This document shows, in pieces, positions 22,024 to 62,236 of a DNA stretch of 64,000 bases (its first letter is position 1; each line of letters begins with the position of its first letter). The translations under genes were made by a program, and so were the position numbers. The DNA is from an uncultured virus (IMG/VR IMGVR_UViG_2718218494_000001) (Duplodnaviria; Heunggongvirae; Uroviricota; Caudoviricetes), in the IMG/VR virus record IMGVR_UViG_2718218494_000001. The stretch is one strand, 5' to 3'. The notes under the pieces are model-generated. The model searched no databases and was not told the DNA's origin. It saw nothing but the letters and a program-made list of their open reading frames with translations.

Positions 22024-22038
22024 TTATCCCCACTCAAT
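22024..22038. other. Prophage left att junction
   Basis: TTATC-CCCACTCAAT: right part of the guaA-type core TCATTCCCACTCAAT. Confidence 0.8.
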
Positions 22039-22098
22039 TATTTACAGCACTCGTAACCAATTGACTGAAAACAAGTTTATGAAACTATAAATTCTGCG

Positions 22099-22148
22099 TA
22101 CCGTTTTATATACCGTCACCGGGAAACAGTACCATGAAAAATACCATG
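22099..22148. repeat. Integrase arm-type sites (left)
   Basis: TACCGTT, TACCGTCA, TACCATGA, TACCATG; related to the TACCGTCA repeats at 61628-61677. Confidence 0.7.
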
Positions 22149-22631
22149 CTACCTGGTTAGTTTATCGTACTGTCTTTCGCAGACCCTTCCGGCTTCAGCT
22201 GCCCGGTCAGCGTATTCTGCCAGTTGCCGGTTTCGTTCGAGAGATTTTTCGAGCACGTCGGCAAGCAAAACTCCGGTGTCTGCGGCTGACGACCCAGCGC
22301 CGACAGTGGCGTTATACTGCCTGAGCTGCTCACGGATGGCAACGAGCTGCTGCTGCAGCCGGCCAGCGCGAGCGGCAGCATCAAGAGCATCATTGCGCGC
22401 CTGGTCGATCCTCTGCTGCGCCTCACGTTCATTGGTTGCTTTCTCCTGTTCATCATGTTTACGGGCTTTCTCATCTTCTGCTTTGCGGTCAGCCTTCGCC
22501 TGCGCATACCCGGCGTCGTACTGTCTGTCACCGTGAATATTCCAGGCTACAACGCCGCCGGCCACCAGTGCAGCAAGCATCGACACGATAAGCAACTGTT
22601 TCCAGTATGCTTTCACGAATGCCGTGATCAT
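22149..22631 (-). CDS. Rz-like inner-membrane spanin (DUF2514)
   Basis: N-terminal TM plus coiled coil; follows the endolysin. Confidence 0.85.
   Translation of the reverse strand: MITAFVKAYWKQLLIVSMLAALVAGGVVAWNIHGDRQYDAGYAQAKADRKAEDEKARKHDEQEKATNEREAQQRIDQARNDALDAAARAGRLQQQLVAIREQLRQYNATVGAGSSAADTGVLLADVLEKSLERNRQLAEYADRAAEAGRVCERQYDKLTR
22157..22393 (-). CDS. Rz1-like outer-membrane lipoprotein spanin embedded in Rz
   Basis: MMLLMLPLALAGC lipobox in an alternate frame inside Rz. Confidence 0.7.
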   Translation of the reverse strand: MMLLMLPLALAGCSSSSLPSVSSSGSITPLSALGRQPQTPEFCLPTCSKNLSNETGNWQNTLTGQLKPEGSAKDSTIN

Positions 22632-23257
22632 GATGCCAGCACCTTCTTGGCCGAAAGATACCGTACACGGCGATCGTCGATACCATTCTGGCCGCCATTG
22701 ATGATCTGCGTGACGCGCATCAGGTCGTCGGTGTACTTCAGGCATCCATATTTAACGAAGTACCAAGCCGCGCTCCGCGCTGCATAGTCGTCCTGCGCCA
22801 GCAGCTCCGGCTGCTTAACCATATCCACCTTCAGGGCAGCCCCGCAATCGCGGTAGTTGTTCAGTCCGGTGGTCTGGATGAGACCGCGCCCGCGGTAAAA
22901 CCAGCCGTCGGTCGGCCCGTTATTCCCCATGCGTTTGCTGTACACCAGATTGGCAATGGCCCGCTGCCTCTCCAGTGGCAACGATGGTTCACCCTGCCGG
23001 CGCCCGAGGGAATTAGCCTGGCCCTGCGTCAGTCTCCCGGCACGGACGAAACCAGCCAGCCCCGCCACGCTGTAATTGAAGCTCTCAACGAGCTGGGTAA
23101 AGCCAGTGCTTTCATGCCCGGCCTGGGCAATAAACATCGCCTGATCCAACGGCTTGATAATGCCAAACTCTTTCATGGCCGCCACAATGTGCGGATGCCA
23201 GCGTGTGGCCAGCGCCAGGCTAACGCCGGCAGCTTTCTGAAACTCGTTAATGTCCAT
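22628..23257 (-). CDS. Endolysin, glycoside hydrolase family 19
   Basis: AQAGHES, YRGRGLIQ.TG, INGG.NG motifs. Confidence 0.92.
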   Translation of the reverse strand: MDINEFQKAAGVSLALATRWHPHIVAAMKEFGIIKPLDQAMFIAQAGHESTGFTQLVESFNYSVAGLAGFVRAGRLTQGQANSLGRRQGEPSLPLERQRAIANLVYSKRMGNNGPTDGWFYRGRGLIQTTGLNNYRDCGAALKVDMVKQPELLAQDDYAARSAAWYFVKYGCLKYTDDLMRVTQIINGGQNGIDDRRVRYLSAKKVLAS

Positions 23258-23552
23258 GTTGCGACCTCGATATCTTGAAGATTTGCACGACGTTGCCGCG
23301 CGTCTTCAGCACCGCGGCGAACATCACAGCATTGATAACGACCTCAGAAAGATCTGCGGTCATGGGGAAGTGGTACAGGTATGAGTACGCGGTGCGAAGC
23401 GGGATACTGGCCGCCGCCACGATGAGGAAATAGGCTATCCACCCGCCCCAGCGGCGGTGGCGCGATCCGTTGCGCTGGAAGAACATCACCCTCAGCGCTA
23501 TCCCGCCGCAGATGAGGGCATTAGCGATAAGCAGCAGATCATGGCCTGTCAT
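23247..23552 (-). CDS. Phage holin family protein
   Basis: Three TM helices; RGNV motif. Confidence 0.8.
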   Translation of the reverse strand: MTGHDLLLIANALICGGIALRVMFFQRNGSRHRRWGGWIAYFLIVAAASIPLRTAYSYLYHFPMTADLSEVVINAVMFAAVLKTRGNVVQIFKISRSQHGH

Positions 23553-23943
23553 CGTCTTTTCCTCCCGGGATTAAATCGCGCGGATTGTCAGAGCGGTGAT
23601 ACAGCCATATCCCGACCCGCACCGCGACAATTGCCGCAACGAACGCGCCGGCGGAGTAGACAATACCCCGCTCGAACGAGTCCTGTGTGATGGTGGGGAT
23701 CATGCTGGCCACGCCGATAAGGATTGATGCTGTGGGTTTGTAGAAGAGAAGACCGCAGAGAAAGCTGAGCAGCGCCAGGAGAACGCGGCGCTTGACCGGA
23801 TACTCAACAGCAGAGGTAACAAAAATTACCGCACCGGCCAGCGACCCCAGCGCCACTTCTGGAGGGACGCCGGCGATAACCGCCGCCAGCGCACCGTAGC
23901 TAAGCCCCTGATTTATTGTATCAGCGGTTAGCGATGCAGACAT
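23539..23943 (-). CDS. Putative holin/antiholin
   Basis: Hydrophobic; first gene of the lysis cassette. Confidence 0.7.
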   Translation of the reverse strand: MSASLTADTINQGLSYGALAAVIAGVPPEVALGSLAGAVIFVTSAVEYPVKRRVLLALLSFLCGLLFYKPTASILIGVASMIPTITQDSFERGIVYSAGAFVAAIVAVRVGIWLYHRSDNPRDLIPGGKDDDRP

Positions 23944-24066
23944 GATGACCACCGTTTACTATGCATGATGAACCTCCTTAGTTGGGTAAGCTCATCATAC
24001 ACAATAAACCGTTTATGGATAAATGGTAAACTTACTGTACTGATAAAATCAGTTTTATTCTATCTT

Positions 24067-24219
24067 TCACTGACTACTTTCTCTTGCTATCTCTATCTGT
24101 TCATCATGTGTTAAATGATTACCATCGCCATCATCTGTTTGGATAACCATCTCTTGTGCATCAGAAATTAACTGCGCAACAATTGGACGATTTGTAAAAA
24201 TATTTTCTAACTCATCCAT
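24067..24219 (-). CDS. 50-aa acidic protein downstream of the tailspike (not in the ORF track)
   Basis: GGAG RBS; MDELENIFTNRPIVAQLISDAQEMV...ARESSQ. Confidence 0.5.
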   Translation of the reverse strand: MDELENIFTNRPIVAQLISDAQEMVIQTDDGDGNHLTHDEQIEIARESSQ

Positions 24220-24227
24220 ATCTGCTC

Positions 24228-26594
24228 CTATAAATTTACTCTTACATATTTAGTATCCGGGTCGTAATAGAACCCACCAACTGACGTTGTTGTTATTGGC
24301 AAGTTTGCATTAACAAAACCATCAGAGTTTATTTGTTTGCGGAGAAGAGGTTTAAACCCAAGCACAGGGTTTGTCACCGCATCCGATCTGTACTCATGAG
24401 AACTCGCCTTTGCCTGGAGATGGTATACGTTACCACCCGGATCAGTATATTTATACTCGTTATCAAACGAGCGCTGGTCCGAGTATGAAAACGCTGTGTT
24501 GAATTTGTTGTACGCGACATTAAATTTGTTGTTGGCGCCCATTCCCAAAGAAAAAATATAATCAAAATCTTTTGCATTTACTTTTATGTCGCAATACTGA
24601 CCTCCATTAAACTTAACAGCCGATTGTCTCCCAGTGCCGATGGAAAACACATCAGCATGCACAACGGTAACATCTACGTTGCAGTGTTGGATATATGCAT
24701 TGTTTGCTGCGGTAGCGAAGAATACAACCCCGTCCGTTACATTAAAGCCAGAGCCTTTGGCATCGCAGGAGATTACGGGTGTTGTCGCTGAGTTTCCAAT
24801 ATACGCTACTATATATTGGGCGTTATACGCTGTTACATAGCCACTACATGCCTCGCAACCATACCCTGTAATAACGCCACCACCCTCAACGATATCCGTT
24901 GCTGAAACTTTGTAAGTGATGTTCTTGCATCTGTTCCATAGATGCAAACCGGCATGGTATGCCTTATTGGTTACCAGTGTTACGCTGCCATTGACGTTGT
25001 TACTTTCAGACTCAATACCTGCGTATGCTGAATCGTTAGCTATAACATCCATAATGAAATCGGAACACGCATCAAGTTTAAAAGTGCTTCCCAGCGCCAA
25101 ATCTGAACTTGCAGACGTTGGCTGTGGGTAAATCTGACCAGATTTTTTAGCAGTACAAAATATTTTCATGTTCTTACAGCCATTATTGGCGAAGAACGGA
25201 AAAACTGAATTACTTAATGTTACGGATGAGCCTATGTACAAACCATCAACACCACTAGCCCAAAAAGAAAGGGTGTTCGCTAATGGAGATGTGAATATTT
25301 CTCTAGAATCTATTTTAGTTGCACTTTGGTATGCGTACAATGGCCTGTTAGTTGGATCATCAGAAGTTATAAGTAACTTCCCATCCAAAGTGAACTCGTT
25401 GCCTGTAACTTTTAAGGTTGTAAATCCAGAATAGCTTGCAGATAATGGGGTCGCTCTTGATAATGTTGAATCCTCACCATGCATGGTAATGTTACTGGCA
25501 GTTATAACCCATCCGTTTGTGGCCTGACTATTTGCAGGGAAATCATTGTAATATTTTGCGTTTGCCCTTAACTCTACGTAATCACCATCACTAAGCGATG
25601 AAAGCATTTTTGCAAAAGGAACTGTATCTGGATGTGAAGAACCAAGACCACGGCACCCATACCATTCAGGCCTTACTATTCTACTTGAGTAATACTCATC
25701 CCTTACGAACACCAATCCTGAATTACCTGATGTTACAACCTTTCCTCCATCAGCGATGAAGTTTGCAGCATCCTGAACAATAAATGTTCCACCACCAACG
25801 ATGTATCCATAATCAAACTCTTTAACCTGTACTCTTGTTCCTATTATATTTGGAACTATAGTTTGAAGTGTTGATATTGTTGGCGTGCTGCCTATATAAA
25901 GCAAGCCACTACCAGAAGCCAATTGAATAAGAACATCAGATGCAGATCCTGATTCAGGCAAAACGACTATTGGATCACCCTGATCGTTAAAGGCAATTAA
26001 TTTATTTTTCCTTATTTCAACCCCTGGTAACGTTGATATCCTAGATTCTGGAATTCTTACTGTTCTCTCAAAGAGAGTATCAGAATGAGAAATTGAAGAT
26101 TCATATTTCTGGTCAGTATAATTTTTCGTGGCCGCATCCTGCGCCTGTGACGGGTCACGCAGGTTACGAATGCGGTTATTGAGCGCGTCGTAATAGTTAG
26201 CGATGAACGACGGCTTGCACAGCGCCAGTCGGAGAAAGCTGAAGCATTGCTGGATAAGCATGGTCAGCTTGTCGAACGCATCCTCATGAACTTCTGCGAA
26301 GAACTTCCCCTGGTTACGAAGGTCAGTCTCCTGGGTAACTGGCAGGTCACGTGAGATAGAAATCTGCCATCCGTTGGCCAGCGGTGACATCAGCACGACA
26401 TTCCCGCCAGAATAGGTACCCGCACCGGTAACGGAATAATCGGTATCCAGAGTCAGCACCGTAATATTTTCGTTAAGGTCAGCGACCTGGACGGTGAGAT
26501 CTGACTTCTTGAAGATGCGGAACGTGTACGGGAAAGATGTGGTAACGCCGTTCCCTGTGTAGTCGTTATGGTCGACTTCGGTTGAGACCGTCAT
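24228..26594 (-). CDS. Tailspike / receptor-binding protein, probable polysaccharide depolymerase
   Basis: T7-fibre-like N-terminus (YTGNGVTTSFPYTF, HEDAFDKLTM) then an AT-rich beta-helix-like body (RPEWYG..G.G...DT). Confidence 0.88.
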   Translation of the reverse strand: MTVSTEVDHNDYTGNGVTTSFPYTFRIFKKSDLTVQVADLNENITVLTLDTDYSVTGAGTYSGGNVVLMSPLANGWQISISRDLPVTQETDLRNQGKFFAEVHEDAFDKLTMLIQQCFSFLRLALCKPSFIANYYDALNNRIRNLRDPSQAQDAATKNYTDQKYESSISHSDTLFERTVRIPESRISTLPGVEIRKNKLIAFNDQGDPIVVLPESGSASDVLIQLASGSGLLYIGSTPTISTLQTIVPNIIGTRVQVKEFDYGYIVGGGTFIVQDAANFIADGGKVVTSGNSGLVFVRDEYYSSRIVRPEWYGCRGLGSSHPDTVPFAKMLSSLSDGDYVELRANAKYYNDFPANSQATNGWVITASNITMHGEDSTLSRATPLSASYSGFTTLKVTGNEFTLDGKLLITSDDPTNRPLYAYQSATKIDSREIFTSPLANTLSFWASGVDGLYIGSSVTLSNSVFPFFANNGCKNMKIFCTAKKSGQIYPQPTSASSDLALGSTFKLDACSDFIMDVIANDSAYAGIESESNNVNGSVTLVTNKAYHAGLHLWNRCKNITYKVSATDIVEGGGVITGYGCEACSGYVTAYNAQYIVAYIGNSATTPVISCDAKGSGFNVTDGVVFFATAANNAYIQHCNVDVTVVHADVFSIGTGRQSAVKFNGGQYCDIKVNAKDFDYIFSLGMGANNKFNVAYNKFNTAFSYSDQRSFDNEYKYTDPGGNVYHLQAKASSHEYRSDAVTNPVLGFKPLLRKQINSDGFVNANLPITTTSVGGFYYDPDTKYVRVNL

Positions 26595-26750
26595 ATGAAA
26601 TCTCCGGATGTCGCAGCGCCCGGCGCGCCACACTGGAGATCATTCTATTACCCATCAAACCATATATGAATAAAACAGATCGAAACTAGCAAAAACATTA
26701 CCATTAAGGTAAACAAAAGAGCTCTGGAAAACTTTGTTACCTTTTGATAT

Positions 26751-26766
26751 ATGTATATATATACAG
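26751..26766. promoter_or_regulatory. Defective LexA box upstream of the antirepressor
   Basis: ATGTATATATATACAG lacks the first conserved C. Confidence 0.75.
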
Positions 26767-26786
26767 TATTTATGGGAGTATTCCTA

Positions 26787-27047
26787 ATGCCAGAGCGGTA
26801 CCAGTATCCTGTCGACGAAGGTTTTGCGGATCGTATTCACACCCCGGAAGGGGTCAGATCCCTGGTTGTAAAATCACAGCTGATGGAGTTGCTCAGGGAG
26901 ATGGAGCGAGACGGCCACGATGTCAGCGGTGCGGCGGCGGAACTGGTGGCACTGGTTAACTATGTGACGAGCTCGCAGTTGTCGATGCGGGAGCTTCAAA
27001 CACACCTGGACTTCTGCGCAATGCAGATCAGGCAGCAACTCAGATAG
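26787..27047 (+). CDS. ant: Antirepressor, SPC32H Ant-like (86 aa)
   Basis: RIHTP.GVRSLV..S.LM.LLRE...AELVALVNYVTSSQ..M.ELQTHLD as recalled for SPC32H Ant; position next to tailspike; SOS-box-like site upstream. Confidence 0.8.
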   Translation: MPERYQYPVDEGFADRIHTPEGVRSLVVKSQLMELLREMERDGHDVSGAAAELVALVNYVTSSQLSMRELQTHLDFCAMQIRQQLR

Positions 27048-27235
27048 TGATTGAAATCAAAATAACGATGGGTTTATTATTACCAAAATGGTAAATTTAC
27101 AACCCATTTCCCTTGTGCCATAGTGATCGGGCATCGGCAAAATCCGGTGCCGGGATTGGCGTCCCGGATAACTAAACGGCGCACAACACGCGCACTGCGT
27201 GTTTTTTTGTGCACGCGCTCTGACGCACCTATCCA

Positions 27236-27313
27236 ATGGTGGGCTGGGCGGGGGTCCGAAAGGACGCCGGTATCCGTTTAGGCCGGTACGCCAACTCCGT
27301 TCAGTTCACCACC
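27236..27313 (+). ncRNA. C4/CI-like antisense RNA (P1 c4 / P4 CI type)
   Basis: GGTGGGCTGGGCGG/CCGTTCAGTTCACC stem, GTCC-GAAA-GGAC hairpin, CCGG hairpin; loops CCGTTTAG and CGCCAA complementary to flanking target pairs. Confidence 0.8.
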
Positions 27314-27361
27314 AGTAATTGGCGTTGCGGTGGTGATAACTCTACTAAGCGGGGTATCACA

Positions 27362-28051
27362 ATGAACACCAAACCTTCTATTTTCAATTTCGAATCCGAC
27401 TCAGCTATTCGCGCCATTATGATCGATGGAAATCCTTGGTTTTTTGCATCCGATGTTTGCCGCGCGATTGGCATCGCAAACCATCGTGATGCAGTTCGCA
27501 AACTTGATGATGATGAGAAGGGCGTCGGCTCAACCGACACCCTTGGTGGTGAGCAGGAATCAGTTATCATCTCTGAGTCTGGCCTCTACACTCTTATCCT
27601 CCGCTGCCGCGATGCGGTGACGCCGGGCACCATCCCCTACCGCTTCCGCAAGTGGGTAACCAGCGAGGTGCTGCCGCAGATCCGAAAGACTGGCCGCTAC
27701 GTTCGGGAAGAACTCTCCCAGGCTGATAAAGCCCGCATGCTGGCGCAGGAGATGACCAGCAGCATGTTGCCGGCGATCATGGATGCACTGCAGGTCGAGC
27801 AGAAGCATTACACCTTCCCTCTTAACCGACGTTATCAGGATCACATCCATTCACCTGATGGCCTGCGTGAACTGGCGAAAAGCTCAATGGTGATGAAGCT
27901 GCTCCGCGAACTCGATGCTGATGGGCATGACGTATCCGGCGCGGCGGCGGAGGTCACGGCCATGCTCAGCTACATTGTTGGTATCGGCACCGTACTGCGC
28001 GACATAGAGACGCATGCTCAGTACGTGATGGCTAAGGCCAAGGGTTACTGA
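27362..28051 (+). CDS. Bro-N domain antirepressor with a C-terminal Ant-like domain
   Basis: Bro-N (PWF.A.DVC, ISESGLY.LI, FRKWVTSEVLPQIRKTG.Y); C-terminus similar to 26787-27047. Confidence 0.85.
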   Translation: MNTKPSIFNFESDSAIRAIMIDGNPWFFASDVCRAIGIANHRDAVRKLDDDEKGVGSTDTLGGEQESVIISESGLYTLILRCRDAVTPGTIPYRFRKWVTSEVLPQIRKTGRYVREELSQADKARMLAQEMTSSMLPAIMDALQVEQKHYTFPLNRRYQDHIHSPDGLRELAKSSMVMKLLRELDADGHDVSGAAAEVTAMLSYIVGIGTVLRDIETHAQYVMAKAKGY

Positions 28052-28094
28052 AGCTGCTGGAGAAGGTAACAGTAGATAACAGATCGGTAGATGC

Positions 28095-28116
28095 AAGCCC
28101 GCAATGCGGGCTTTTT
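28095..28116 (+). terminator. Rho-independent terminator
   Basis: AAGCCCGC-AAT-GCGGGCTTTTT. Confidence 0.8.
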
Positions 28117-28136
28117 ATGCGCTTTGTTGTGACATG

Positions 28137-28520
28137 TCACGCAACGCAGTTGTTTCCTCTCCAAGAGACATTTTTGATTATTTTATCACTGCCGAATTCG
28201 ACATAAATTGTGCAGCTAAAATTAATAGAGTAACCGCCATCAGTTGTGGCGTAGGTATTTGAATATACAGTATTACCTATAACGTTTGAAGTTGTATTAT
28301 ATGTTGTAGTTTGAGGAACATTGTAAGTTCCAGAGTTTGAGTAGACGTACACTCTGTTGCCATCTGGAGATGTTAACTCCCCTGTCGGATACCCCCATTG
28401 TTGAACCATTGAGTCAATTGTTTGCCCGCGCCATGAGAGCATGTTACGCTCAAACTGAGCCGATGTTTGGCAGCCAGACAATACCATTGCGATAAAAATT
28501 ACTGCTAATCCTCTTAACAA
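28137..28520 (-). CDS. AT-rich lipoprotein (moron)
   Basis: LSGC lipobox, AAGGAG RBS, TTG start. Confidence 0.8.
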   Translation of the reverse strand: MLRGLAVIFIAMVLSGCQTSAQFERNMLSWRGQTIDSMVQQWGYPTGELTSPDGNRVYVYSNSGTYNVPQTTTYNTTSNVIGNTVYSNTYATTDGGYSINFSCTIYVEFGSDKIIKNVSWRGNNCVA

Positions 28521-28662
28521 TTTTTTCTCCTTATTAGGTAGTCATTATGAAATCTAAAATGATAACCTTCTTTTTAAGATTGACTGTTTTAGCCGTCTTT
28601 ATATTAGCTTTAAATATAGTTATTTACGGCATACCAAGAATATTTGGCATGCCATGGATAAA

Positions 28663-52394: not shown

Positions 52395-52586
52395 GCTGTC
52401 ACCCACTCGATCGCCAGATAAGCCACATACAGGACGGCGACGATTGCCACCCAACCAATGATGTTTGCCACCATCACGAACAGCAGCAGTGACCGCCGAC
52501 TGTAATTCACGAAATCAAAATCCATACTTACCCCCGCTTACCCGTTTAACTTATTGATTCAATTGATATCAATGAAGATCGTTGTT

Positions 52587-52934
52587 TTAGAACTCTTCGA
52601 CCTTCCACCCGCCGCCGGCTTTTGCCGGGAGCTTCGTTACTCCGATGATCCGGAATGGGTACTGGTCGGCGGCGACTTTGGTTTTCACCCTGGCATCGTC
52701 GGTCCAGTAACCCCCCTTCACTTCGTGCATTTCCAGTTGGCCGTTTGCCAGCATCACGGCGAAGTCAGGCGTGTAGAACGTGTTGTCAGCCAGACGCAGC
52801 TTGATGCCTTCGAACCGGTACCAGGCTATCTCCCCGTAGCGCTTACGCAGTTCAAGCTCTTGCGCATACGCCGTTTCGGTTTTGTTCATCTGGCCCGCTT
52901 TAAGCCGGCCTAGTGCCTGTACTGTCTTTCGCAT
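52587..52934 (-). CDS. PD-(D/E)xK nuclease (DUF1064-like)
   Basis: YTPDF...EVKG. Confidence 0.8.
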   Translation of the reverse strand: MRKTVQALGRLKAGQMNKTETAYAQELELRKRYGEIAWYRFEGIKLRLADNTFYTPDFAVMLANGQLEMHEVKGGYWTDDARVKTKVAADQYPFRIIGVTKLPAKAGGGWKVEEF

Positions 52935-53053
52935 GATTTTTACCTTATTGGTAATTTATAACCATAAACGGATCAATATCAATAGTCTTGCGCATATTTT
53001 ATTACCCTTTTGGTAAACATTAAGGCGTAAAAAAACGCGCTTCCGCGCCGGTA

Positions 53054-53839: not shown

Positions 53840-54603
53840 AAGAAATCCTTCCAGCCTTCAGGGCTGTTCCAGTGTGGTACTTCATCGTCAGAGCTTTCAC
53901 CGCGCTTTCCTGCCGCTCTTTTTTTCCTGTTCATCAGCAGCCGGGCAAACTTCTGCTCCCACTGCACGTGTTGCATCACATTGCCTTCTGCCATCCAGTA
54001 GGTGATGAATTCGATCAGATCTGATTTCTTGTAACCGTCAGCTGGTAGCGCATGGCCCCATGTTCTGGCGCGCATGACAAAGTCCTCTGACGGCTTCCAG
54101 TTTTCATGCATGGTGAATTTGCCAATTGGCTCTCCGATACCATCAACGACAACCGGAGGGACTTGAATTACTTCGCGCGCAGAGAGAGGGGTTTTTATTT
54201 CCCTGATCCCTGATCCCTGATCCATTCCTAATGGTACTTGTACCGTATCAGTACCGTACTCATACGGTACTAGGGGTAAACCTTTGATTTTGCTTTCTTT
54301 TGGCTTATTCACTACCTGATGTTTAAGGAAATTAGTTATGACCCCAAAATGCTTGCCATCAGGGGTGGAAAACATGGATAAATAACCACAGTTGGAAAGC
54401 TCCCGTATTAGTACCGGAATAGGAACGGATGGTTCTCGGATAGGGAAAACTGCAGCTTTGATAAGCTTCGGGTTTGCATTGAAATAGCCTTCATCATCTG
54501 CGTAATTAAGCAGACCAATAGCCAACAAGCAGGCTGGTTCTGATACCTCTGCCATGTCTTCATCGGCCCAGAACTCGGGCTTAATGGTGCGAATGCGGGC
54601 CAT
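53836..54603 (-). CDS. Replication initiator with a DnaT-like C-terminal domain
   Basis: MARIRTIKPEFW, ADDEG, EFITYW...WEQKFA. Confidence 0.85.
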   Translation of the reverse strand: MARIRTIKPEFWADEDMAEVSEPACLLAIGLLNYADDEGYFNANPKLIKAAVFPIREPSVPIPVLIRELSNCGYLSMFSTPDGKHFGVITNFLKHQVVNKPKESKIKGLPLVPYEYGTDTVQVPLGMDQGSGIREIKTPLSAREVIQVPPVVVDGIGEPIGKFTMHENWKPSEDFVMRARTWGHALPADGYKKSDLIEFITYWMAEGNVMQHVQWEQKFARLLMNRKKRAAGKRGESSDDEVPHWNSPEGWKDFL

Positions 54604-54812
54604 CAGATCACCTCCACGGCATTACCTTTTGAGGCCTCATGCATTAGCCGTTTTATCTCAGCATGGCGGCGGCGGTTAGTCTCGAGGGTGCATTCGACAC
54701 AATGCCCGTTGTATACCCATCGCTCACTGTCATGGCCGTGCTTACATTGCTTACCGGTGTAGTAGCGCTTTAGTCCTGCCTTTGCCGCTTCGACGCGAGT
54801 AATGATCTCCAT
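54603..54812 (-). CDS. Small Cys/His protein
   Basis: YYTGK.CKHGH..ER..NG.CVEC. Confidence 0.7.
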   Translation of the reverse strand: MEIITRVEAAKAGLKRYYTGKQCKHGHDSERWVYNGHCVECTLETNRRRHAEIKRLMHEASKGNAVEVI

Positions 54813-54959
54813 AGTTCCTGTCTCACTCTGGTTGTGGTTACGGTAATTTTGCAGCAAGCCAAAAAAAAGATCAACCGTATTTGGATAATTATTACCGAAT
54901 TGGTGTACAGGGAGAGGCAGGAGCCGCCTGGGGGTGGCGGCGAGGGTGAGTTTTGAGGA

Positions 54960-55193
54960 TTAACGTTCGTGGAACCAGAGGACCAGGTCGGATTTTGCGG
55001 AGATCCACTTACGGGATTTGCAGGCTTTAAACAGTCTTTCTAACAGAGGCTTACGTGGAATTCTTCTACGGCCAGTCAGGTGAACCTGAATGTAGTGGCT
55101 GGTCGTGCCGGCGTCACTTGCGAACTCTTCACGCTCTGCCGGAGAGAGGTCGAGCCAGCAGCGTTTGAAGTCAAATTTTTGCACATCGCTCAT
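54960..55193 (-). CDS. cro: Cro-like regulator
   Basis: FASDAGTT..YI HTH; divergent from the repressor. Confidence 0.75.
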   Translation of the reverse strand: MSDVQKFDFKRCWLDLSPAEREEFASDAGTTSHYIQVHLTGRRRIPRKPLLERLFKACKSRKWISAKSDLVLWFHER

Positions 55194-55231
55194 ATTTTTT
55201 AGTCCCGGACTAACTTTAGACAGCCTGATTA

Positions 55232-55293
55232 TTACCAATCTGGTGTAAAAATCAATGACTGTTACCTTTTTGGTAAGTTTACCTTTATGGTAA
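55232..55293. promoter_or_regulatory. Immunity operator cluster
   Basis: TTACC-N5-GGTAA at 55262 and 55279; variant at 55232. Confidence 0.85.
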
Positions 55294-55346
55294 TATTCTA
55301 TTAAATTTAATCAGTTAGGTAACAATTCCAGGCTAAAAAAATAGAA

Positions 55347-55928
55347 ATGAAAAGCATCTACGACATAAGACGCGACAACCTCAATGAGATAATCCGGAAG
55401 GATTTCGATAACACGCAACTCCGGTTTGCCGAGAGAATCAAAAAATCAGCTAACCTCGTTAACAGGTGGAGCAAGGGGACAAAAAATATCGGCGCTAACG
55501 CGGCACGCGAGATCGAGTCGTTCGCCGGAAAAGGTCGTTTCTGGCTGGATATCGACCATCTGTCAGATACCCCGACGCTGCCGGAGATTATCGACCCGCA
55601 GGAATGGAGTGTGGAAAAGCAGGCAGCGTTTACCCTGGGTGTATGGATGGGACAGCATCCGGATCTGAACTCAGAGAAAAAGGTTTCGGAAGCGGCCGGT
55701 ATCGGCCAGGCGACCGTAAATCGCATCCTGAACTGCGAAGGCTCCACCAGCATTGGCGTACTGTCGGCTATCGCCAGGGCGTTCGGCCGCGATGCATATG
55801 AGCTGATCCTGCCGCCTGGTAATGCTGGTCTGATTGACTATGACCACCATGAATACGCCGGGCTGCCGCAGGAAGAGAAAAACAAGATCACCGCCTTCAT
55901 CAAGTTCATCGTCAGCCAGAACCAATAG
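55347..55928 (+). CDS. Prophage repressor with two HTH domains and no S24 autocleavage domain (SPC32H Rep-like)
   Basis: IRRDNL..TQ..FAE and GIGQATVNRIL HTHs; no peptidase motifs. Confidence 0.85.
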   Translation: MKSIYDIRRDNLNEIIRKDFDNTQLRFAERIKKSANLVNRWSKGTKNIGANAAREIESFAGKGRFWLDIDHLSDTPTLPEIIDPQEWSVEKQAAFTLGVWMGQHPDLNSEKKVSEAAGIGQATVNRILNCEGSTSIGVLSAIARAFGRDAYELILPPGNAGLIDYDHHEYAGLPQEEKNKITAFIKFIVSQNQ

Positions 55929-56148
55929 CCTCTAATCTACCTGTCACTCCTGCCGGGGGGATAACTTCCCGCGTCTCATACATTTACCAAAATGGTAAAC
56001 TTTTCCTCGTCACATCTATTGACTAATTCGTAAATTGATCAGATTATTACCTTAACGGTAACAGCAGGGCGTTGAATTACCAGAAACCCACCACCGGGTG
56101 GCTTTCTCATACCCCTGATATTTACCAAATGGTAATAGTGAGGTGTGT

Positions 56149-56298
56149 ATGCAATGGCAAATCATTAACGGCTGGTACTGCGTTACGGCATGCGGGCTGA
56201 TGAGCTGGAAGTTTCGCACGCTGCCGGAAGCTATCAGCTGGGCATTCGTCAGCAAACTGGCAGCAAAAACGGAAATGGGTATGGGGGTGAGCAAGTGA
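56149..56298 (+). CDS. Small early protein (49 aa, not in the ORF track)
   Basis: GAGG RBS; MQWQIINGWYCVTACGLMSWKF. Confidence 0.6.
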   Translation: MQWQIINGWYCVTACGLMSWKFRTLPEAISWAFVSKLAAKTEMGMGVSK

Positions 56299-56594
56299 AC
56301 ATTCAGCAGATTAACAACCTGAAAAAAATCATGAACAACATCGACGGCGACTACCAGCTTAACCAGATGCTGTACGAGCGCCACGTCGAGCTTATCGACG
56401 CGATCAAGTTCCATCAGCTGCAAAAGCCATTCTACGAACTGGAGCGCAAAGGCGTGCGCAGCGAGATCCTGGAAGAGCTGATGATGAGCTCTGAGTTTGA
56501 AGAATGCCTGGCTGCGTATCAGCGGGAACTCACCGGCATCATTGCCAAGTGGGATCTGGCTGACCAACTGGATACGGCGAGGAACGCGGCATGA
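56295..56594 (+). CDS. Hypothetical early protein
   Basis: GTG start overlapping the previous stop. Confidence 0.65.
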   Translation: MNIQQINNLKKIMNNIDGDYQLNQMLYERHVELIDAIKFHQLQKPFYELERKGVRSEILEELMMSSEFEECLAAYQRELTGIIAKWDLADQLDTARNAA

Positions 56595-57490
56595 TGCAGA
56601 ACGCTGGAAGCATGGACAGAACCAAATATCTCGGCGGCAGTGATGTCGCCGGTATTCTCGGCATTAGCCCATGGCGCACTCCGCTTGAGGTGTATCTGGA
56701 TAAGGTTCAGCCACGTATCAAACCAGTAGATCCTTCAAAGCAGAAAGTTTTCACGCGTGGCCAGCGTATGGAGCCATATGTAATTGACCTGCTTTCTGAA
56801 GAGACGGGCCTAGAAATTATTCACCGCGGTAACCGGTATATCCATCGTGATTACGGATTTATCGCAGCAGAGATCGATGCAGAAGCGGCTACCGGAGAAA
56901 ACATCGAGATCAAAACAGTGAGCCCATTCAAGGCCAAAGAATGGGGAGAGGTTCAGACAGATGCTATCCCGGTGCATTACACGGCGCAGGCCATGCATGG
57001 GCTAATGGTTACAGGGAAGCAGGTATGTGTATTCGGCGTCCTGATCGGGGGTGATGACTTCCGTATCTATCGTGTTGAGCGAGACGAAGAAACCATCCAG
57101 GCCATTCTCGAGAAAGAGGTCGCTTTCTGGGACCGGGTTAAAAACCTGAACCCTCCAGAAGCAACCAGCGTCAGCGACATATATCTGATGTTCGAAAAGG
57201 ACTCAGGAACAAGTATCGAGGCTGACGGAAAGGCTCTGGCCCTTTTCAATGACCTGCGAGATATGAAATCAAAATTCAAGTATCTGGAAGATGAAATTGC
57301 CGTATCGGAAGAGAAATTAAAGCTCTACATGCAGGAGCACTCGATTTTGACGCTGGACGGAAAGCCGATCTGCACCTGGAAATCTCAGGTAAGCAACCGG
57401 TTTGATCAGCAGTTATTTCAGGCGGCACACCCAGAACTATTCGAAAAATTCAAAACAGCAACGACATCACGCGTTTTCAGAATGAAGTAA
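56591..57490 (+). CDS. YqaJ-family recombination exonuclease
   Basis: LGGSD...LG.SPW.TP, EIKT, Y.AQ. Confidence 0.9.
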   Translation: MMQNAGSMDRTKYLGGSDVAGILGISPWRTPLEVYLDKVQPRIKPVDPSKQKVFTRGQRMEPYVIDLLSEETGLEIIHRGNRYIHRDYGFIAAEIDAEAATGENIEIKTVSPFKAKEWGEVQTDAIPVHYTAQAMHGLMVTGKQVCVFGVLIGGDDFRIYRVERDEETIQAILEKEVAFWDRVKNLNPPEATSVSDIYLMFEKDSGTSIEADGKALALFNDLRDMKSKFKYLEDEIAVSEEKLKLYMQEHSILTLDGKPICTWKSQVSNRFDQQLFQAAHPELFEKFKTATTSRVFRMK

Positions 57491-57499
57491 GGAGAAAAA

Positions 57500-58522
57500 A
57501 TGTCTACCAACGCACTTAAGGCAGCTGCGACAGGAAACCAGGTCGCGCAGCATAGCGACAAACCAACCACTCTGGCTGGCTTGCTCGCAGATCCAAAAAT
57601 TAAGGCTCAAATGGCTTTAGCGCTTCCTAAGCACATGACTGCAGATCGCCTTGCACGAATCGCTACCACTGAGATCCGCAAGGTTCCAAAACTGGCCGCA
57701 TGTGACCAGGCCAGTTTCCTCGGGGCAATTATGCAGTGTGCTCAACTCGGGCTGGAACCGGGCGGTGCACTTGGCCATGCATACCTGATTCCGTTCGACA
57801 AACGCCAGAAAGTAAATGGCCGCTGGGAAACTGTATCGACAGAAGCGCAGCTGATTATTGGTTATCGCGGAATGATTGACCTCGCCCGTCGGTCAGGTCA
57901 AATCCTGAGCATATCAGCGCGTACAGTCCATGCGAACGACAAATTCAGTTACTCATACGGACTGGAAGAAACGCTCGAGCATTCACCTTGCGAGACCGGT
58001 GACCGAGGAGAACTTACGCATGTTTACGCCGTTGCACGCCTGAAAGATGGCGGCGTTCAGTTCGAAGTTATGAGCCGGGCAGACGTTGAGAAAGTTCGTG
58101 CCCTGAGCAAAGCCGGAAGCAGCGGACCGTGGGTGGACCACTTTGACGAGATGGCCAAAAAGACGGTGATCCGTCGCCTGTTTAAATACCTGCCTGTTTC
58201 TATCGAACTGCAAAAAGCGGTTGTGATGGATGAACGAGCTGAAGCCGGCCTGAGCCAGGATAACGCAGCTGTTATCACCGGTGAGTATTCCGTCGTAGAC
58301 GATGAGCAGCAGAGCATGACAGCGGTTTCTGAATCTGATCGAGAAGAAGCGCGTGAATACGCTAGCGCCATTCTGAACAGCCTCGATCCTTCTGTGGATG
58401 ATGCAAAGGCGCTTTTTAAGCGGGCAGAAGACGAAATAAACGCGCTGGCTGAAAAGTTAGGCGATGAATATCACCAGGGATTCATGACGACGCTTAACGA
58501 TATGCGTCCTGAATTTGCATAA
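57500..58522 (+). CDS. recT: RecT recombinase
   Basis: ALPKHMTADR, QLGLEPG.ALGHAYL, IGYRGMIDLARRSG, EMAKKT. Confidence 0.95.
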   Translation: MSTNALKAAATGNQVAQHSDKPTTLAGLLADPKIKAQMALALPKHMTADRLARIATTEIRKVPKLAACDQASFLGAIMQCAQLGLEPGGALGHAYLIPFDKRQKVNGRWETVSTEAQLIIGYRGMIDLARRSGQILSISARTVHANDKFSYSYGLEETLEHSPCETGDRGELTHVYAVARLKDGGVQFEVMSRADVEKVRALSKAGSSGPWVDHFDEMAKKTVIRRLFKYLPVSIELQKAVVMDERAEAGLSQDNAAVITGEYSVVDDEQQSMTAVSESDREEAREYASAILNSLDPSVDDAKALFKRAEDEINALAEKLGDEYHQGFMTTLNDMRPEFA

Positions 58523-58573
58523 CACCACCACCGCGGCGCCGGGCGCGCCGCACTGAAAAAAAGAGAGGTAACG

Positions 58574-58822
58574 ATGAAAGGTGCATTTAACAGAAAGCAA
58601 CTACTGGAGGTGGTGCCTGTATCGATGAGCACTATCGACCGCATGGAGAAAAACGGGGAGTTCCCTAAGCGTTTCTGGATCACAGACAAGCGCTGTGCCT
58701 GGAACAGCGAAGAGATCGAGCGCTGGCTGGATGAACGTCAGCAGAACGGTACAACGGAGTTTGCTGGAAAAAAGCCTCCGCTTGAGCAACGAGTATTTCG
58801 CCGGGTTGGTAATGCGGCGTGA
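58574..58822 (+). CDS. AlpA-family regulator / probable excisionase
   Basis: S.STI.R.EK.G.FPK...AW...EIE.W. Confidence 0.85.
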   Translation: MKGAFNRKQLLEVVPVSMSTIDRMEKNGEFPKRFWITDKRCAWNSEEIERWLDERQQNGTTEFAGKKPPLEQRVFRRVGNAA

Positions 58823-58931
58823 CGTCGCTGGCGAGGTACTGGGAAAGGTGGTCAGGATGGTTTCTGTACCTGGCCGCCGTATCCGCCTGGCTGTTCCTGC
58901 TGGCGGTCATTTTTCGAGAGGGTTGGATACG

Positions 58932-59225
58932 ATGAATCGGATGGAAAAATACCACGCGGATTATGTCTCGCAACGCAAAGCGCCCCCTCTTGTCGCCGTA
59001 ACGCCGGCGGCAATGGAGATCGAGCAGCGCGCTATTGCTCGCGAGAAAAAAGGCCAGTACCGCCTGGCCGCTCGCCTCTGGCTTGAGTGCATGGATGCGG
59101 CCACTGGAGAGGTTGAGCGGGCCCGTATCGCTATACGCCGCGATCAGTGCATTGGCCGCGGGAATCGGCTTCGCCATGGATGCTATGCCGGGATCTGCGC
59201 CACCGCAGGGGTGATTTATGACTAA
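58932..59225 (+). CDS. PerC-family protein
   Basis: A..RE.KG.YR.AA.LWLE motif. Confidence 0.7.
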   Translation: MNRMEKYHADYVSQRKAPPLVAVTPAAMEIEQRAIAREKKGQYRLAARLWLECMDAATGEVERARIAIRRDQCIGRGNRLRHGCYAGICATAGVIYD

Positions 59226-59372
59226 CCCACACGACAGCATTCGCGTAGGAAGTATCACGCTGGTTTATTCGTCCGTGCGCCGTGGCTGGCTGGCGCCAGG
59301 CGGCCAGGTTATCCAGAACCCGCTGAAGGCTCAGCGCCTGGCGGAGCAACTGAATAGCAAGAAGGTGTCAGC

Positions 59373-59966
59373 ATGAGCGGAAAATACACCCTGATCTATG
59401 CGGATCCGCCTTGGGCATACCGCGACAAGGCAGCCGACGGTGACCGCGGCGCCGGTTTCAAGTATCCAGTGATGAATGTTCTGGATATCTGCAGGCTGCC
59501 GGTATGGGAGCTCGCCGCCGAAGATTGCCTTCTGGCTATGTGGTGGGTACCGACTCAGCCGGTAGAGGCGCTGAAAGTCATGGAGGCCTGGGGATTCCGC
59601 CTGATGACCATGAAGGGATTCACCTGGCACAAGACGAACAAGCATAAAGGGAACAGTGCGATCGGCATGGGCCATATGACCCGGGCGAACAGCGAAGACT
59701 GCCTGTTTGCGGTGCGCGGGAAACTACCGGCCCGCATGGACGCCTCGATCTGCCAGCACGTCACGGCGCCGCGCCTGGAGAACTCGCGCAAACCAGACGT
59801 TATCCGCGAGAAACTGGTGCAGCTGCTTGGCGATGTCCCACGCATTGAGCTCTTCGCACGCCAGTCGTCTCACGGTTTCGACGTGTGGGGGAATCAGTGC
59901 TCGTCGCCGGCGGTGGAGTTGCTGCCAGGCTGCGCCGTGCCAGTAGTGAAGACGGAGGCCGCATGA
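59373..59966 (+). CDS. MT-A70-family adenine methyltransferase
   Basis: YADPPW, SRKP, IELFAR, WGNQ. Confidence 0.9.
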   Translation: MSGKYTLIYADPPWAYRDKAADGDRGAGFKYPVMNVLDICRLPVWELAAEDCLLAMWWVPTQPVEALKVMEAWGFRLMTMKGFTWHKTNKHKGNSAIGMGHMTRANSEDCLFAVRGKLPARMDASICQHVTAPRLENSRKPDVIREKLVQLLGDVPRIELFARQSSHGFDVWGNQCSSPAVELLPGCAVPVVKTEAA

Positions 59967-60145
59967 CAACCATACTTTCAAACTTCCTGTGCGGTGCAGC
60001 GCTGATATGGCTGGGATACCTTGTCGTTCTGTTCATCCTTTGGGAGCGGCCTACACGTACTCATACAGCCTTTTTTGGCAGGTTATCGATACTTTTCGGC
60101 GTTGTGTGCGCGCTGGCAATGGCGCTCAAGGACGGTGCTGCATGA
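59963..60145 (+). CDS. Small two-TM membrane protein
   Basis: Start MTTILS with GGAGG RBS. Confidence 0.55.
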   Translation: MTTILSNFLCGAALIWLGYLVVLFILWERPTRTHTAFFGRLSILFGVVCALAMALKDGAA

Positions 60146-60333
60146 ACATTGCCGAAGAGGCCTCGCTGATACGACAACTCGAAGAGGCGCGCGCCATTAT
60201 CAACCAGAGGAATGGTGAGATCATTCACCTGCAGAGAGAAGCGGCGCGCTACCGTGAACAGCGGGATTCTGCAAACGCGATGGTTAAGTTCCTGCGTTGG
60301 CTCTTTGAGAATTCTTCGCAGGCGACACAATGA
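60142..60333 (+). CDS. Small coiled-coil protein
   Basis: Start MNIAEE; coupled ORF. Confidence 0.55.
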   Translation: MNIAEEASLIRQLEEARAIINQRNGEIIHLQREAARYREQRDSANAMVKFLRWLFENSSQATQ

Positions 60334-60349
60334 GCCGCCTCCGGGCGGA

Positions 60350-61600
60350 CTATTGTTCATTCATCCACTTTTCAAATGCAGACGGGGAGAACGGCACCAG
60401 GTCGTAATGCTCCCCGTTTATCCATGCATCAACCATATTTGCCCACTGCTGCAGCATGTAGGCCCGCTGCCGGGAATACTCGGCCTTGTTGTAAACTGCC
60501 CTCACGCCCTTCTGTTCATGCGCAAGCGCCTTCTCTATCCAGTCTGAAGGGAAACCCGCTTCATGCAAAAGCGTGCTCGCTGTGCGCCGCAGGTCGTGCA
60601 CTGTTAGAGGTTGCAGGTTCTCCCCAGCATCCGCTGCCGCAGCAACCGCGCGATCGATGACTGAGTTAAGAGCGGCATTGGATAACGGCTTACTGGTGCT
60701 GTAGCGACCTGGCAACAGATAATCACTCCCGCCGGCACACATCTGCAGGCCTACCATCAGATCCTGTGCCTGATGCGGAAGGTAGATGACATGCGACCGG
60801 CTTCCCTTCATCCTGTCAGATGGGATCGTCCAGGTTCCTTTGCTGAAATCCACCTCTTTCCACGTCGCCATGATGAACTCGGTTTTGCGCACCATCGTGA
60901 TCAGGATGAGCTTCACAGCCAGTTTTAAGGTTGGCAAAGTGCTGACGGTATCGAGAGACCTGAACAGCACGCCGATTTCTTCCGGCTGCAGGCAACGGTC
61001 ACGCGGTTTAAACATGGCGATCGCCGAAGGTTTGATATCTGCGGCCGGGTTGAATAACCCGTGCCCGCGGTCATTGGCGTACCGGTAAACGCTGCTGATG
61101 ATTTCACGCGCCTGCACCGCCGTCGCACGTCCGCCGCGCTCGACTATGCGATCGCAAAGATCACGCACCATAGGGGTCGTTATCTCGGACATCATTTTGT
61201 TTCCGAGAACAGGCAAAATATCCCTGTCGATAACTGATTGCTTCATAGCCCGCGTACTGTCAGCCAGGACCACATGTTTCATGTAGGCGTCGGTATGTAC
61301 CGTAAATGTTTCGGCGCCGCGGATCCGTTTGATACCGTCACGCTTCGCCGCAGCCGGCGACTGGCCTGCGTTCAGCAGCTTTTTAGCCGCTATCAGTTCA
61401 TCCCTGGCTTCGGCCAGCGTGATACCGTCACGACCATACTGACCGATAACCAGCGTCTCCCGGCGGCCGTTAATGCGGTAATCGTAACGAAACGAGATAG
61501 TGCCTGAGATCAGCACGGCTACATACAGTCCGTCGCGATCGGAGACCTTGTACATTTTGCCCTGCGGTTTCAGGTTTTTTAGTTTGGTATCGGTAAGCAC
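60350..61600 (-). CDS. int: P4-like tyrosine integrase
   Basis: Arm-binding N-terminus (D.DGLY), HDLRRT, LAH, VY. Confidence 0.95.
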   Translation of the reverse strand: MLTDTKLKNLKPQGKMYKVSDRDGLYVAVLISGTISFRYDYRINGRRETLVIGQYGRDGITLAEARDELIAAKKLLNAGQSPAAAKRDGIKRIRGAETFTVHTDAYMKHVVLADSTRAMKQSVIDRDILPVLGNKMMSEITTPMVRDLCDRIVERGGRATAVQAREIISSVYRYANDRGHGLFNPAADIKPSAIAMFKPRDRCLQPEEIGVLFRSLDTVSTLPTLKLAVKLILITMVRKTEFIMATWKEVDFSKGTWTIPSDRMKGSRSHVIYLPHQAQDLMVGLQMCAGGSDYLLPGRYSTSKPLSNAALNSVIDRAVAAAADAGENLQPLTVHDLRRTASTLLHEAGFPSDWIEKALAHEQKGVRAVYNKAEYSRQRAYMLQQWANMVDAWINGEHYDLVPFSPSAFEKWMNEQ

Positions 61601-61627
61601 ATTTCACCCGTGATGCATCATTTTTTC

Positions 61628-61677
61628 TGACGGTACGAGAGTATACCGTAATGGTAATACCGTCAGGTATACCGTCA
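61628..61677. repeat. Integrase arm-type sites (right)
   Basis: TGACGGTA, TACCGTAA, TACCGTCA x2. Confidence 0.7.
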
Positions 61678-61792
61678 AAAAATGTGAGATAGAGTGAATA
61701 GTGTTGAAGTGATATAAAGAAAAACCCCCTGTAAAAACAGAGGGTTGAATTTCAATTTGAGTAGATATGATTAGCTATAATGTAGCCGTTAA

Positions 61793-61800
61793 TCATTCCC
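61793..61800. other. Prophage right att junction
   Basis: TCATTCCC: left part of the guaA-type core. Confidence 0.8.
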
Positions 61801-62236
61801 CGTTACTGTGGATAATCAATATATTGTGTCTCTGGCAGTTGCTTTTCCTACCATATGTTGTCCCTCCCCGTTCTATTTTGTGATCGCACAGTGTGAAAAA
61901 CGACATCACAGTGGAGACGCTGCTGACGGGATGATGTTCATCCAGGGTCGTAAGATCGGCCGGTACTGGTTACCCGCCGGACGAAGGGCCGGCCAACGCG
62001 CAGCGTCGGTAGCTGGCTTTAAAAATGCCGGCGGAAACTTAAAGATTAAGCTGCATACTCTGCGAAATTTTGCAAATTTCACTCAACATGCTTCGTTCAG
62101 ATCCCAATAGAGCTTTCACCATCGCCTGTAATAGCCGCCCTGCTGCGTGATTACTCCGCTCATCGGGTTGCTGGCGACAAGCCAATACCTGTTCGTGACA
62201 GGCATTGATTGAACCGTTATCCCTAACTAATAATGT

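Follow-up and report, generated by a model that had tools for sequence, protein, structure and literature searches.

The window, a stretch of 64,000 nucleotides from an uncultured virus record (IMG/VR IMGVR_UViG_2718218494_000001), carries a complete epsilon15-like prophage inserted in a pKPN-type plasmid of Klebsiella pneumoniae. We propose, with a probability of roughly 65%, that, with guaA already occupied, the integrase of a resident prophage placed this second copy in the plasmid, and that the virion module was recombined later. The plasmid copy is likely a stray second copy and is probably locked in, and its capsid and tail genes were likely exchanged afterwards. New here, as judged by sequence comparison, are arms 100% identical to those of ST512-KPC3phi13.3 (hereafter phi13.3), the chromosomal guaA prophage of the same Klebsiella lineage, and the apparent presence of pure and hybrid forms at one insertion. 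A first-pass annotation had overlooked both that the element is the twin of a chromosomal guaA prophage and that two versions of the virion module exist at one junction.

Insertion site and integrase of the prophage

Comparison of the junctions with the empty plasmid site of pBIC-1a, ACGGTTATCCCCCGTTACTGTGG, a sequence predicted beforehand from the window, revealed that the prophage is flanked by an exact duplication of CCC (Table 1). TCATTCCC (61793-61800) and CCCACTCAAT (22029-22038) occur once each in the window in that orientation. Joined right to left, they give the free attP, of which an intact example exists at IMG/VR locus L020, and the joined form equals the core stated for epsilon15, phiV10 and ZX5, attgagtgggaatgatt (PMC9782041). 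The first-pass annotation, which had rebuilt this core and placed the prophage at 22024..61815, was correct on the core and on the presence of a complete prophage there, while the empty site sets the limits at 22029-61800. It had also read the rebuilt sequence as the guaA 3' end; this is the core of the phage group, but the Klebsiella gene itself, judging from the lysis-side junction in chromosomal lysogens, ends in ...GAG TGG GAG TAA or, in some cases, in GAA TAA. The ending GAA TGA comes from the phage.

The plasmid target is otherwise intact, and the crossover falls within a short overlap whose shared bases lie at one end, the plasmid contributing CCC alone, as the annotation had it. The flanks are contiguous in related plasmids: of 1,897 plasmid records matching the empty 91-bp site, 770 have their best place at an identity of at least 99%, and the 24 listed at 100% identity are all full length. 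The junctions proved real: out of 72,556 plasmid records, 8 contain both at 100%. Contigs span the right junction in 4/4 runs examined, one of which is a possible source of this DNA, and the left one is supported by the 8 assemblies and IMG/VR L028, contig bridging concerning the right junction. Among 39 lysis-side loci from an IMG/VR scan, one has this plasmid flank, 26 have Klebsiella-type guaA-downstream flanks, one is the free attP, two are flankless and nine have other flanks with TT or CT before CCCACTC. A search of metagenome contigs for the left-junction pattern gave no match, and no excision scar was evident in a spread of 60 of the 1,897 empty-site records, imperfect matches being judged without their sequences.

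CCC likely corresponds to the first three bases of a 7-bp overlap, CCCACTC. These seven bases occur in attP, in the host site and also in a second plasmid site, whereas the site studied here has the first three only, contiguously. The second plasmid site, whose empty form was confirmed, has exactly CCCACTC in common and would bound the overlap to this heptamer, with cleavage positions placed presumptively. Two observations count against our preferred reading: the core flanks of this plasmid site resemble attP weakly, and a better-looking look-alike 420 bp from the insertion was left unused. The look-alike was spotted post hoc; a search of the 12-kb empty region allowing up to two mismatches gave 1 match vs 0.03 (5/200 shuffles). 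With up to three mismatches the window holds two matches vs 1.77 expected. The look-alike at 21604 is not supported as a cause of the insertion.

The integrase is identical to that of phi13.3 (416/416) and shares 82.7% identity with epsilon15 Int. Its catalytic motif, which we take to be R238, K265, H335/R338, H361 and Y370, is intact, with all these residues present. An identical integrase adjoins guaA in MK422448, which places the primary site elsewhere than in the plasmid. The motif TACC[GA]T, counted on either strand, occurs 4 times in the first 200 bp of the prophage and 5 times in the last, vs 0.24 per 200 bp elsewhere in it; these putative binding sites agree with the arm sites already noticed inside both ends. 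The intact integrase, the arm repeats and the empty site support the initial claim that a complete guaA-type phage entered an F-like plasmid by off-target insertion of the integrase type. The plasmid backbone indeed lies outside, with umuDC to the left and sopC to the right.

PHROGs matches were obtained for 42/42 ORFs tested, covering head, short-tail, ejection, lysis, immunity and recombination modules, and 8/8 large structural ORFs lack an internal stop. The prophage is 100% identical to that in NZ_CP008829.1. PADLOC matched one of eight unassigned or accessory proteins, a type II methyltransferase; a tRNA search found none, and no canonical CTG-N10-CAG box occurs in 26551-27400.

Table 1. 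Coordinates of the prophage, its junctions and the flanking plasmid genes in the window
Feature	Position	Strand	Details	Basis
Epsilon15-like prophage, complete	22029..61800		39,772 bp including both CCC copies	limits set by empty site
Lysis-side junction	22022..22038	+	plasmid GGTTATC, shared CCC 22029-22031, phage ACTCAAT; phage-type overlap CCCACTC 22029-22035	
Integrase-side junction	61793..61815	+	phage TCATT, shared CCC 61798-61800, plasmid CGTTACTGTGGATAA; plasmid-type overlap CCCCGTT	
att-core look-alike, unused	21604..21618	+	13/15; in frameshifted IS605-family tnpB; mismatch at overlap position 1	
Tyrosine integrase	60350..61600	-	416 aa, with arm-binding domain	Pfam PF13356, PF22022, PF00589
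Short-arm arm-type repeats TACC[GA]T	22099..22147	+	at 22099, 22111, 22130, 22142; putative binding sites	sequence
Long-arm arm-type repeats	61630..61675		at 61630 (inverted), 61644, 61651 (inverted), 61658, 61670; putative binding sites	sequence
AlpA-type excisionase	58574-58822		within right arm	PHROGs
Left arm	22029..26177		spanin 22149-22631, GH19 endolysin 22628-23257, holins 23247-23943, tail-fibre tip	PHROGs
Tail-fibre gene	24228..26594	-	resident-prophage tip, donor N-terminal anchor; left crossover ~26128-26203	three-way site analysis
Swapped morphogenesis module, 20.4 kb	26204..46683		antirepressors, ejection proteins 28663-36169, tail tube, protease	
Swapped module, further genes			capsid 41503-42489, portal 43480-45162, terL 3' end	
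Terminase large and small subunits	46563..48619	-	right crossover ~46684-46693 inside terL	
Right arm	46684..61800		replication genes 53054-54603, cro, repressor 55347-55928, recE/recT 56591-58522, methyltransferase, integrase	
Plasmid umuD-umuC	18584..20280	+	left flank	
Plasmid sopC repeats and sopB	62238..63972	-	right flank; sopC repeats 62238-62912, 15.7 x 43 bp	

Chromosomal twin, mosaic structure and carrier plasmids

Over both arms (19.3 kb) the prophage has no difference from chromosomal phi13.3 (MK422448) up to both cores, in prophage ends where relatives diverge by 3-4%, and the two repressors are identical (193/193). Plasmid and chromosomal copies are both present in 3/4 runs examined. 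In X3, X10 and X12 a branch leads into guaA at 61800, guaA is occupied by the sister prophage and the depth over the shared arm is doubled (X3, for example, gave 25 vs 46 vs 22.5); seven resident alleles (46608-46683) recur as second alleles in 3 runs. Run X1 counts against our preferred reading, as no guaA branch is found among those listed, yet the sequence of the second copy is present.

The module between the arms is 96-97% identical in DNA to ST11-OXA245phi3.2 (phi3.2, MK416010) by BLAST, values more reliable than those of a whole-length MAFFT alignment, which gave 35-66% per kb against phi13.3 over 28-45 kb and is indicative only. At the protein level, its capsid is 41% identical to that of phi13.3 vs 99% to that of phi3.2, and its portal 62% vs 99%. 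Five of the eight carriers have, as in the window, this 20.4-kb virion module of another phage at the same junction; the remaining three carry a pure 99.99% duplicate, a copy of 39,630 bp that differs from phi13.3 at 3-5 positions.

The carriers are plasmids of 133-286 kb that look like one clonal insertion, judging from two features of their backbone. First, over 18-22 kb of aligned left backbone, four carriers have 0-2 differences, vs 44 to an empty plasmid. Second, a private traL/ISKpn26 junction occurs in 7 records, all of them carriers (7/8). The prophage is retained in 7/7 records with this marker, a small and related sample, and poor excision from the plasmid site is plausible. In 5/5 carriers inspected, ISKpn26 has replaced the pilin gene traA together with the beginning of traL, and two of these carriers also lack traM-traJ-traY; the contig of the window ends before the tra region. 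Loss of the tra operon is described for pKPN-fff (PMC5142620). Given these losses and the private junction in 7/8 carriers, neither self-conjugative spread nor zygotic induction by that route, both suggested in the first-pass annotation, is supported; transfer with a helper plasmid is conceivable for carriers that retain the traM region. A phage-plasmid of the P1/N15 type was ruled out by the discrete insertion with att junctions and the common empty form of the plasmid.

Origin of the plasmid copy

The sharing of 3 bp at one end of the overlap fits what is known of off-target insertion by tyrosine integrases. In the strand-swap model of lambda, as presented in PMC2297512 and PMC2817482, 2-3 nt are swapped at one end of an overlap of 7 bp. 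By analogy, Int would begin at the CCC end by exchanging the first pair of strands; once replication or repair had fixed the result, the integrase side would keep the plasmid-type overlap and the lysis side the phage-type overlap, which matches the observed ends. Since the guaA prophage has the same repressor, the plasmid copy would be repressed by its chromosomal sister. The mismatched ends would excise poorly, and the copy would therefore be inherited clonally. In one sub-lineage, homologous recombination may then have imported capsid, tail and ejection genes from a phi3.2-like relative, the presumed donor, with crossovers placed in the tail-fibre gene and terL.

Possible, if on the unlikely side, is the reverse order of events: a recombinant phage with resident arms and a donor virion module, formed in the course of lytic growth, would have infected an immune sibling and entered the plasmid site. 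The three pure-duplicate plasmids would then result from exchange with the copy in the chromosome or from mis-phased assembly. The resident-derived DNA does form a single 19.3-kb arc through attP on the circular map, as one double crossover gives, the window's arm and phi13.3 have the same derived alleles, and hybrids are in the majority with 5/8 carriers. Against this, at 3/3 shared differences from phi13.3 the pure duplicates have the alleles of outside relatives, so that the hybrid-first route needs more events; the argument comprises three sites, one of them in a homopolymer that also differs in length between runs. Moreover, of the three IMG/VR contigs with the hybrid crossover pattern none extends to a guaA flank, and two have an identifier prefix in common with plasmid-junction contigs. 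The hybrid module might itself sit in the chromosome of pure-duplicate carriers, through a reciprocal swap or mis-phasing of near-identical copies.

That an unrelated superinfecting phage entered the plasmid and had its arms overwritten later by gene conversion from the chromosomal prophage is very unlikely. Related phages do enter plasmids independently, at the second site, and the two copies evidently recombine, but identity with the resident up to both cores, in a region of 3-4% divergence among relatives, would require both conversion tracts to stop within tens of bases of the junctions. We give equally little credence to an integrase-free joint, formed at CCC by microhomology or with the help of a transposon: only 3 bp are in common and an IS605-family element lies ~150 bp to the left, but the breakpoint lies precisely where the 7-bp attP core begins, the arms are complete, no plasmid sequence was lost, and the off-target insertions described for GIsul2 retain the same triplet (PMC9376610). 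An assembly artefact is scarcely credible and already largely refuted: perfect 15-kb and 4-kb repeats with the chromosome invite mis-joins and read-level support is confined to the right junction, but the same junctions recur in 8 records of several sources, the right one is bridged in 3 runs that also show a distinct branch into guaA, the two rebuild attP and the empty site exactly, and the presence of the prophage goes together with that of a private marker outside it.

The insertion is a natural off-target record that sets limits to the region of strand exchange in the epsilon15/guaA integrase family, in agreement with GIsul2, and captures phage mosaicism at a fixed address, pure and recombinant forms having the same junction. 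Well-studied clinical Klebsiella plasmids have 19-40 kb of near-perfect sequence in common with a chromosomal prophage, which matters for assembly, for prophage counts and possibly for plasmid-chromosome exchange. As the insertion is rare (8 records) and apparently a clonal passenger, it carries little direct clinical weight unless packaging in place is demonstrated. A rather improbable extension would make the twin a 19-40 kb homology bridge, allowing reversible plasmid-chromosome fusion at guaA and trade of modules, with in-place packaging by the locked copy on induction. Packaging would then run from the terminase region through the lysis end into plasmid DNA, the pilin-less plasmid would move by phage, and hybrid carriers would make two virions from one immunity region.

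Comparison with known systems

Megablast to epsilon15 aligned 46% and 28% of the two halves of the prophage at ~80%, the assignment here being to epsilon15-like phages and not to the genus, for which the threshold of whole-genome nucleotide similarity is ~70%. Secondary sites were reportedly the subject of work by Harmer et al. in 2017 for GIsul2 and by Rutkai in 2003 for lambda. The prophage resembles the uetakeviruses epsilon15, phiV10 and vB_EcoP_ZX5, as these are described in PMC9782041, in its size (~39.7 kb), gene order, attP core and integration at the guaA 3' end, and its integrase is 82-83% identical to theirs; Uetakevirus members are short-tailed phages of 39-41 kb. It is a mosaic of phi13.3 arms and a virion module 96-97% identical to that of phi3.2, and both of these prophages are chromosomal at guaA, whereas that of the window is in a plasmid.

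Complete prophages inside large plasmids are also described as 'Hodors', whose plasmids are presented as conjugative vehicles in Bacillota (PMC12934698), unlike the five inspected carriers, which are without the pilin gene. For lambda, off-site integration with attB present amounted to 0.51% of attB reads, and secondary att sites kept a short run of bases beside the integration point (PMC5605937); these events were chromosomal and obtained in the laboratory, whereas the present one is natural, plasmid-borne and inherited in a clinical lineage, with presumptive cleavage positions. A close parallel in the off-target site is GIsul2, a guaA-targeting tyrosine-integrase element found in IncC plasmids at a site cut down to GGGA and, experimentally, also TGGG (PMC9376610). 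Both contain this same triplet, CCC, when read on the opposite strand, and a circular form of GIsul2 at the plasmid site went undetected in work cited there. GIsul2 is a 15-kb island, whereas the element described here is a full 39.8-kb phage with a chromosomal twin and two versions of its virion module.

Junctions, empty site and plasmid carriers

The first-pass annotation had proposed that an integrase placed a guaA-type prophage in an F-like plasmid at a site sharing only CCC; both of its junction strings are present where it had located them, and the DNA on either side is that of pKPN-type IncFIB/IncFII plasmids from Klebsiella pneumoniae. These sides are joined in pBIC-1a in the very sequence foretold for the empty site, and the duplication is thus exactly CCC, without plasmid loss. 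The junctions and empty site of the plasmid insertion are therefore real. Of 1,897 plasmid records matching the 91-bp empty site, 770 do so at ≥99% identity at their best place, and both junctions occur together in 8 of 72,556 (the carriers NC_021654.1, NZ_CP008829.1, NZ_CP007729.1, NZ_CP014649.1, OW848987.1, OW969721.1, NZ_MN922301.1 and NZ_CP037929.1). The window's own genome is a single 68,357-bp contig, so that the host chromosome and the tra region fall outside its scope. Three DnaA-box-like 9-mers surround the empty target, with 1, 2 and 0 mismatches to the consensus.

Over 18–22 kb of aligned left backbone, four carriers differ from the window at 0–2 sites and an empty plasmid at 44. 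Beside ISKpn26, traA and the start of traL are missing in all five carriers inspected, as is traM-traJ-traY in two of them; tra loss through ISKpn26 recombination is described for the eighth carrier (PMC5142620). Among the best 5,000 records, the fused traL/ISKpn26 junction is found as a single piece in seven, all carriers and none an emptied descendant of their lineage, while five others match it in two parts that still have traL and traA between them. Given the traA/traL loss, PLSDB's label 'conjugative' is wrong as regards self-transfer, and the suggested spread by self-conjugation is not supported. The insertion is one clonal event, not spreading on its own, and the pilin gene is lost in the five carriers inspected. 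The plasmid copy may also be locked in: excision from secondary sites is impaired in ICEBs1 (PMC3715440) and suspected to be so in GIsul2, a guaA-targeting integrase island (PMC9376610).

No description of this insertion was found in the main texts of the openly accessible literature searched; the original pKN-LS6 paper may mention the phage. Of the pKPN-498 papers, PMC4937214 has the string 'phage' 0 times and PMC5142620 three times, each on Mu. PMC5347186 and PMC6867608 name carrier plasmids in tables only, the latter listing CRISPR spacers that match them, and the PMC7371120 text gave no match to guaA, phi13.3 or phi3.2 as typed.

Features in the window and in compared loci
Feature	Location	Remark
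Group II intron of the plasmid	window 16694-18181 (-); L003:8090-9577; L012:11555-13042	same protein accession
IS605-family tnpB	window 20597-21795 (-)	broken across two frames
att look-alike	window 21604-21618	unused; within tnpB
DnaA-box-like 9-mers	window 22012-22020, 61807-61815; L002 ~6170-6205	three within 35 bp
Crossover in tail-fibre gene	window ~26128-26203	
Small antirepressor-like gene and Bro-N gene	window 26751-28051 (+)	supplied by donor side
Crossover in terL	window ~46684-46693	
Second plasmid landing site	L073:2549-3805 (CP023938.1); L004:16279; L010:21852; L003; L012	
sul2-CR2 (ISVsa3) unit	L014:38634-41929 (NZ_CP084708.1)	in place expected for prophage integrase

A chromosomal twin and an exchanged module

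All 42 prophage ORFs tested matched PHROGs, the small remaining ones lying outside that scan, with functions covering lysis, tail, ejection, head, terminase, replication, immunity, recombination and integration. Two Klebsiella relatives, phi13.3 (MK422448) and phi3.2 (MK416010), are both located at guaA. To the chromosomal phi13.3 the window's prophage is identical over 22029–26177 and 46684–61800 (0 differences), including the repressor (193/193) and integrase (416/416). In three of four sequencing runs (X3, X10 and X12), one contig spans the plasmid junction while another runs from 61800 into guaA, depth is roughly doubled across the arm common to both copies, and at 46608–46683 seven second alleles agree with phi13.3, which together indicate that guaA is occupied by a same-repressor sister in at least these three samples. 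In the fourth, from a possible source of this DNA, one contig spans the plasmid junction and a loose end is phi13.3 sequence, a guaA branch not being listed. The plasmid copy would accordingly be repressed. The window's repressor comes from the resident prophage while its antirepressor-like and Bro-N genes come from the donor, and window 26551–27400 holds no canonical LexA box; inducing one copy might release both. In one short IMG/VR locus (L017) 200 bp separate the plasmid junction from the guaA junction, which the collapsed twin probably brought about as a scaffold artefact.

The middle 20.4 kb is unlike phi13.3: its capsid and portal have 41% and 62% amino-acid identity to the phi13.3 proteins, against 99% for both to phi3.2. 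This hybrid form occurs in five of the eight carriers; in the remaining three the prophage is 39,630 bp long and differs from phi13.3 at 3, 5 and 3 sites, so that two versions occupy one plasmid junction. At the three differences common to these pure duplicates the allele is that of outside relatives, one site being a homopolymer that varies among runs as well, whereas two derived alleles are common to phi13.3 and the window. Among these plasmid copies of the three isolates, the pattern modestly favours an early duplicate that would later have been overwritten by the hybrid. Alternatively, the hybrid may have arrived first, with later exchange or mis-phasing giving the pure duplicates. What this analysis adds to a known kind of insertion is the twin in the chromosome and the exchanged module.

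The att core and other landing sites

The integrase carries arm-binding and catalytic domains and shares 82.7% identity with the epsilon15 enzyme. Its attP core is the one published for epsilon15, phiV10 and ZX5, the last integrating at the guaA 3' end (PMC9782041). Free attP reads TAATCATT-CCCACTC-AATTATTT, an imperfect inverted repeat (6/8 matching by eye) flanking 7 bp. A second plasmid site is empty in CP023938.1, and related phages occupy it in NZ_CP068692.1 and NZ_CP097707/8; what it has in common with attP is exactly CCCACTC, which limits the exchange region to at most 7 bp.

At this second site, where the phages show at least two haplotypes, the full core adjoins a resolvase and the truncated start of an integrase gene, with IS5075 alongside; it is probably a GIsul2-family att remnant. 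One such phage, only ~29 kb in the record, lies on a blaKPC-2 plasmid recorded too from a conjugation assay (NZ_CP068687.1). In NZ_CP084708.1 the CR2 terminus abuts CCCACTC, an arrangement already known from att sites of the GIsul2 family. The group II intron seen in the window's plasmid is also inserted in the related prophage of strain IR12197_1, whose two halves are split over two plasmid records. An epsilon15-like circle from E. coli that contains a Mu-like phage is filed as a plasmid (CP088505.1), as are NZ_CP129740.1 and NZ_CP129873.1, which yet carry the chromosomal genes purM, ppk and guaA with a guaA prophage and are probably chromosome fragments.

The window's target at the overlap, CCCCGTT, agrees with CCCACTC at positions 1–3 and 6; the int side has the plasmid-type overlap and the lysis side the phage-type one. 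Strand exchange at the CCC end and then replication would leave both types on the sides observed; Int action and the cleavage positions are inferred. In the lambda model the Holliday junction forms via 2–3 nt swaps at one end of the overlap, which is 7 bp long (PMC2297512, PMC2817482), and lambda secondary sites, used despite attB being present, retain a short run of T next to where integration occurs (PMC5605937). Off-targets of the GIsul2 guaA integrase are GGGA, in IncC plasmids, and TGGG, seen experimentally (PMC9376610), which keep the same triplet as the window's CCC. Given these parallels, the insertion belongs to a known kind, off-target integration.
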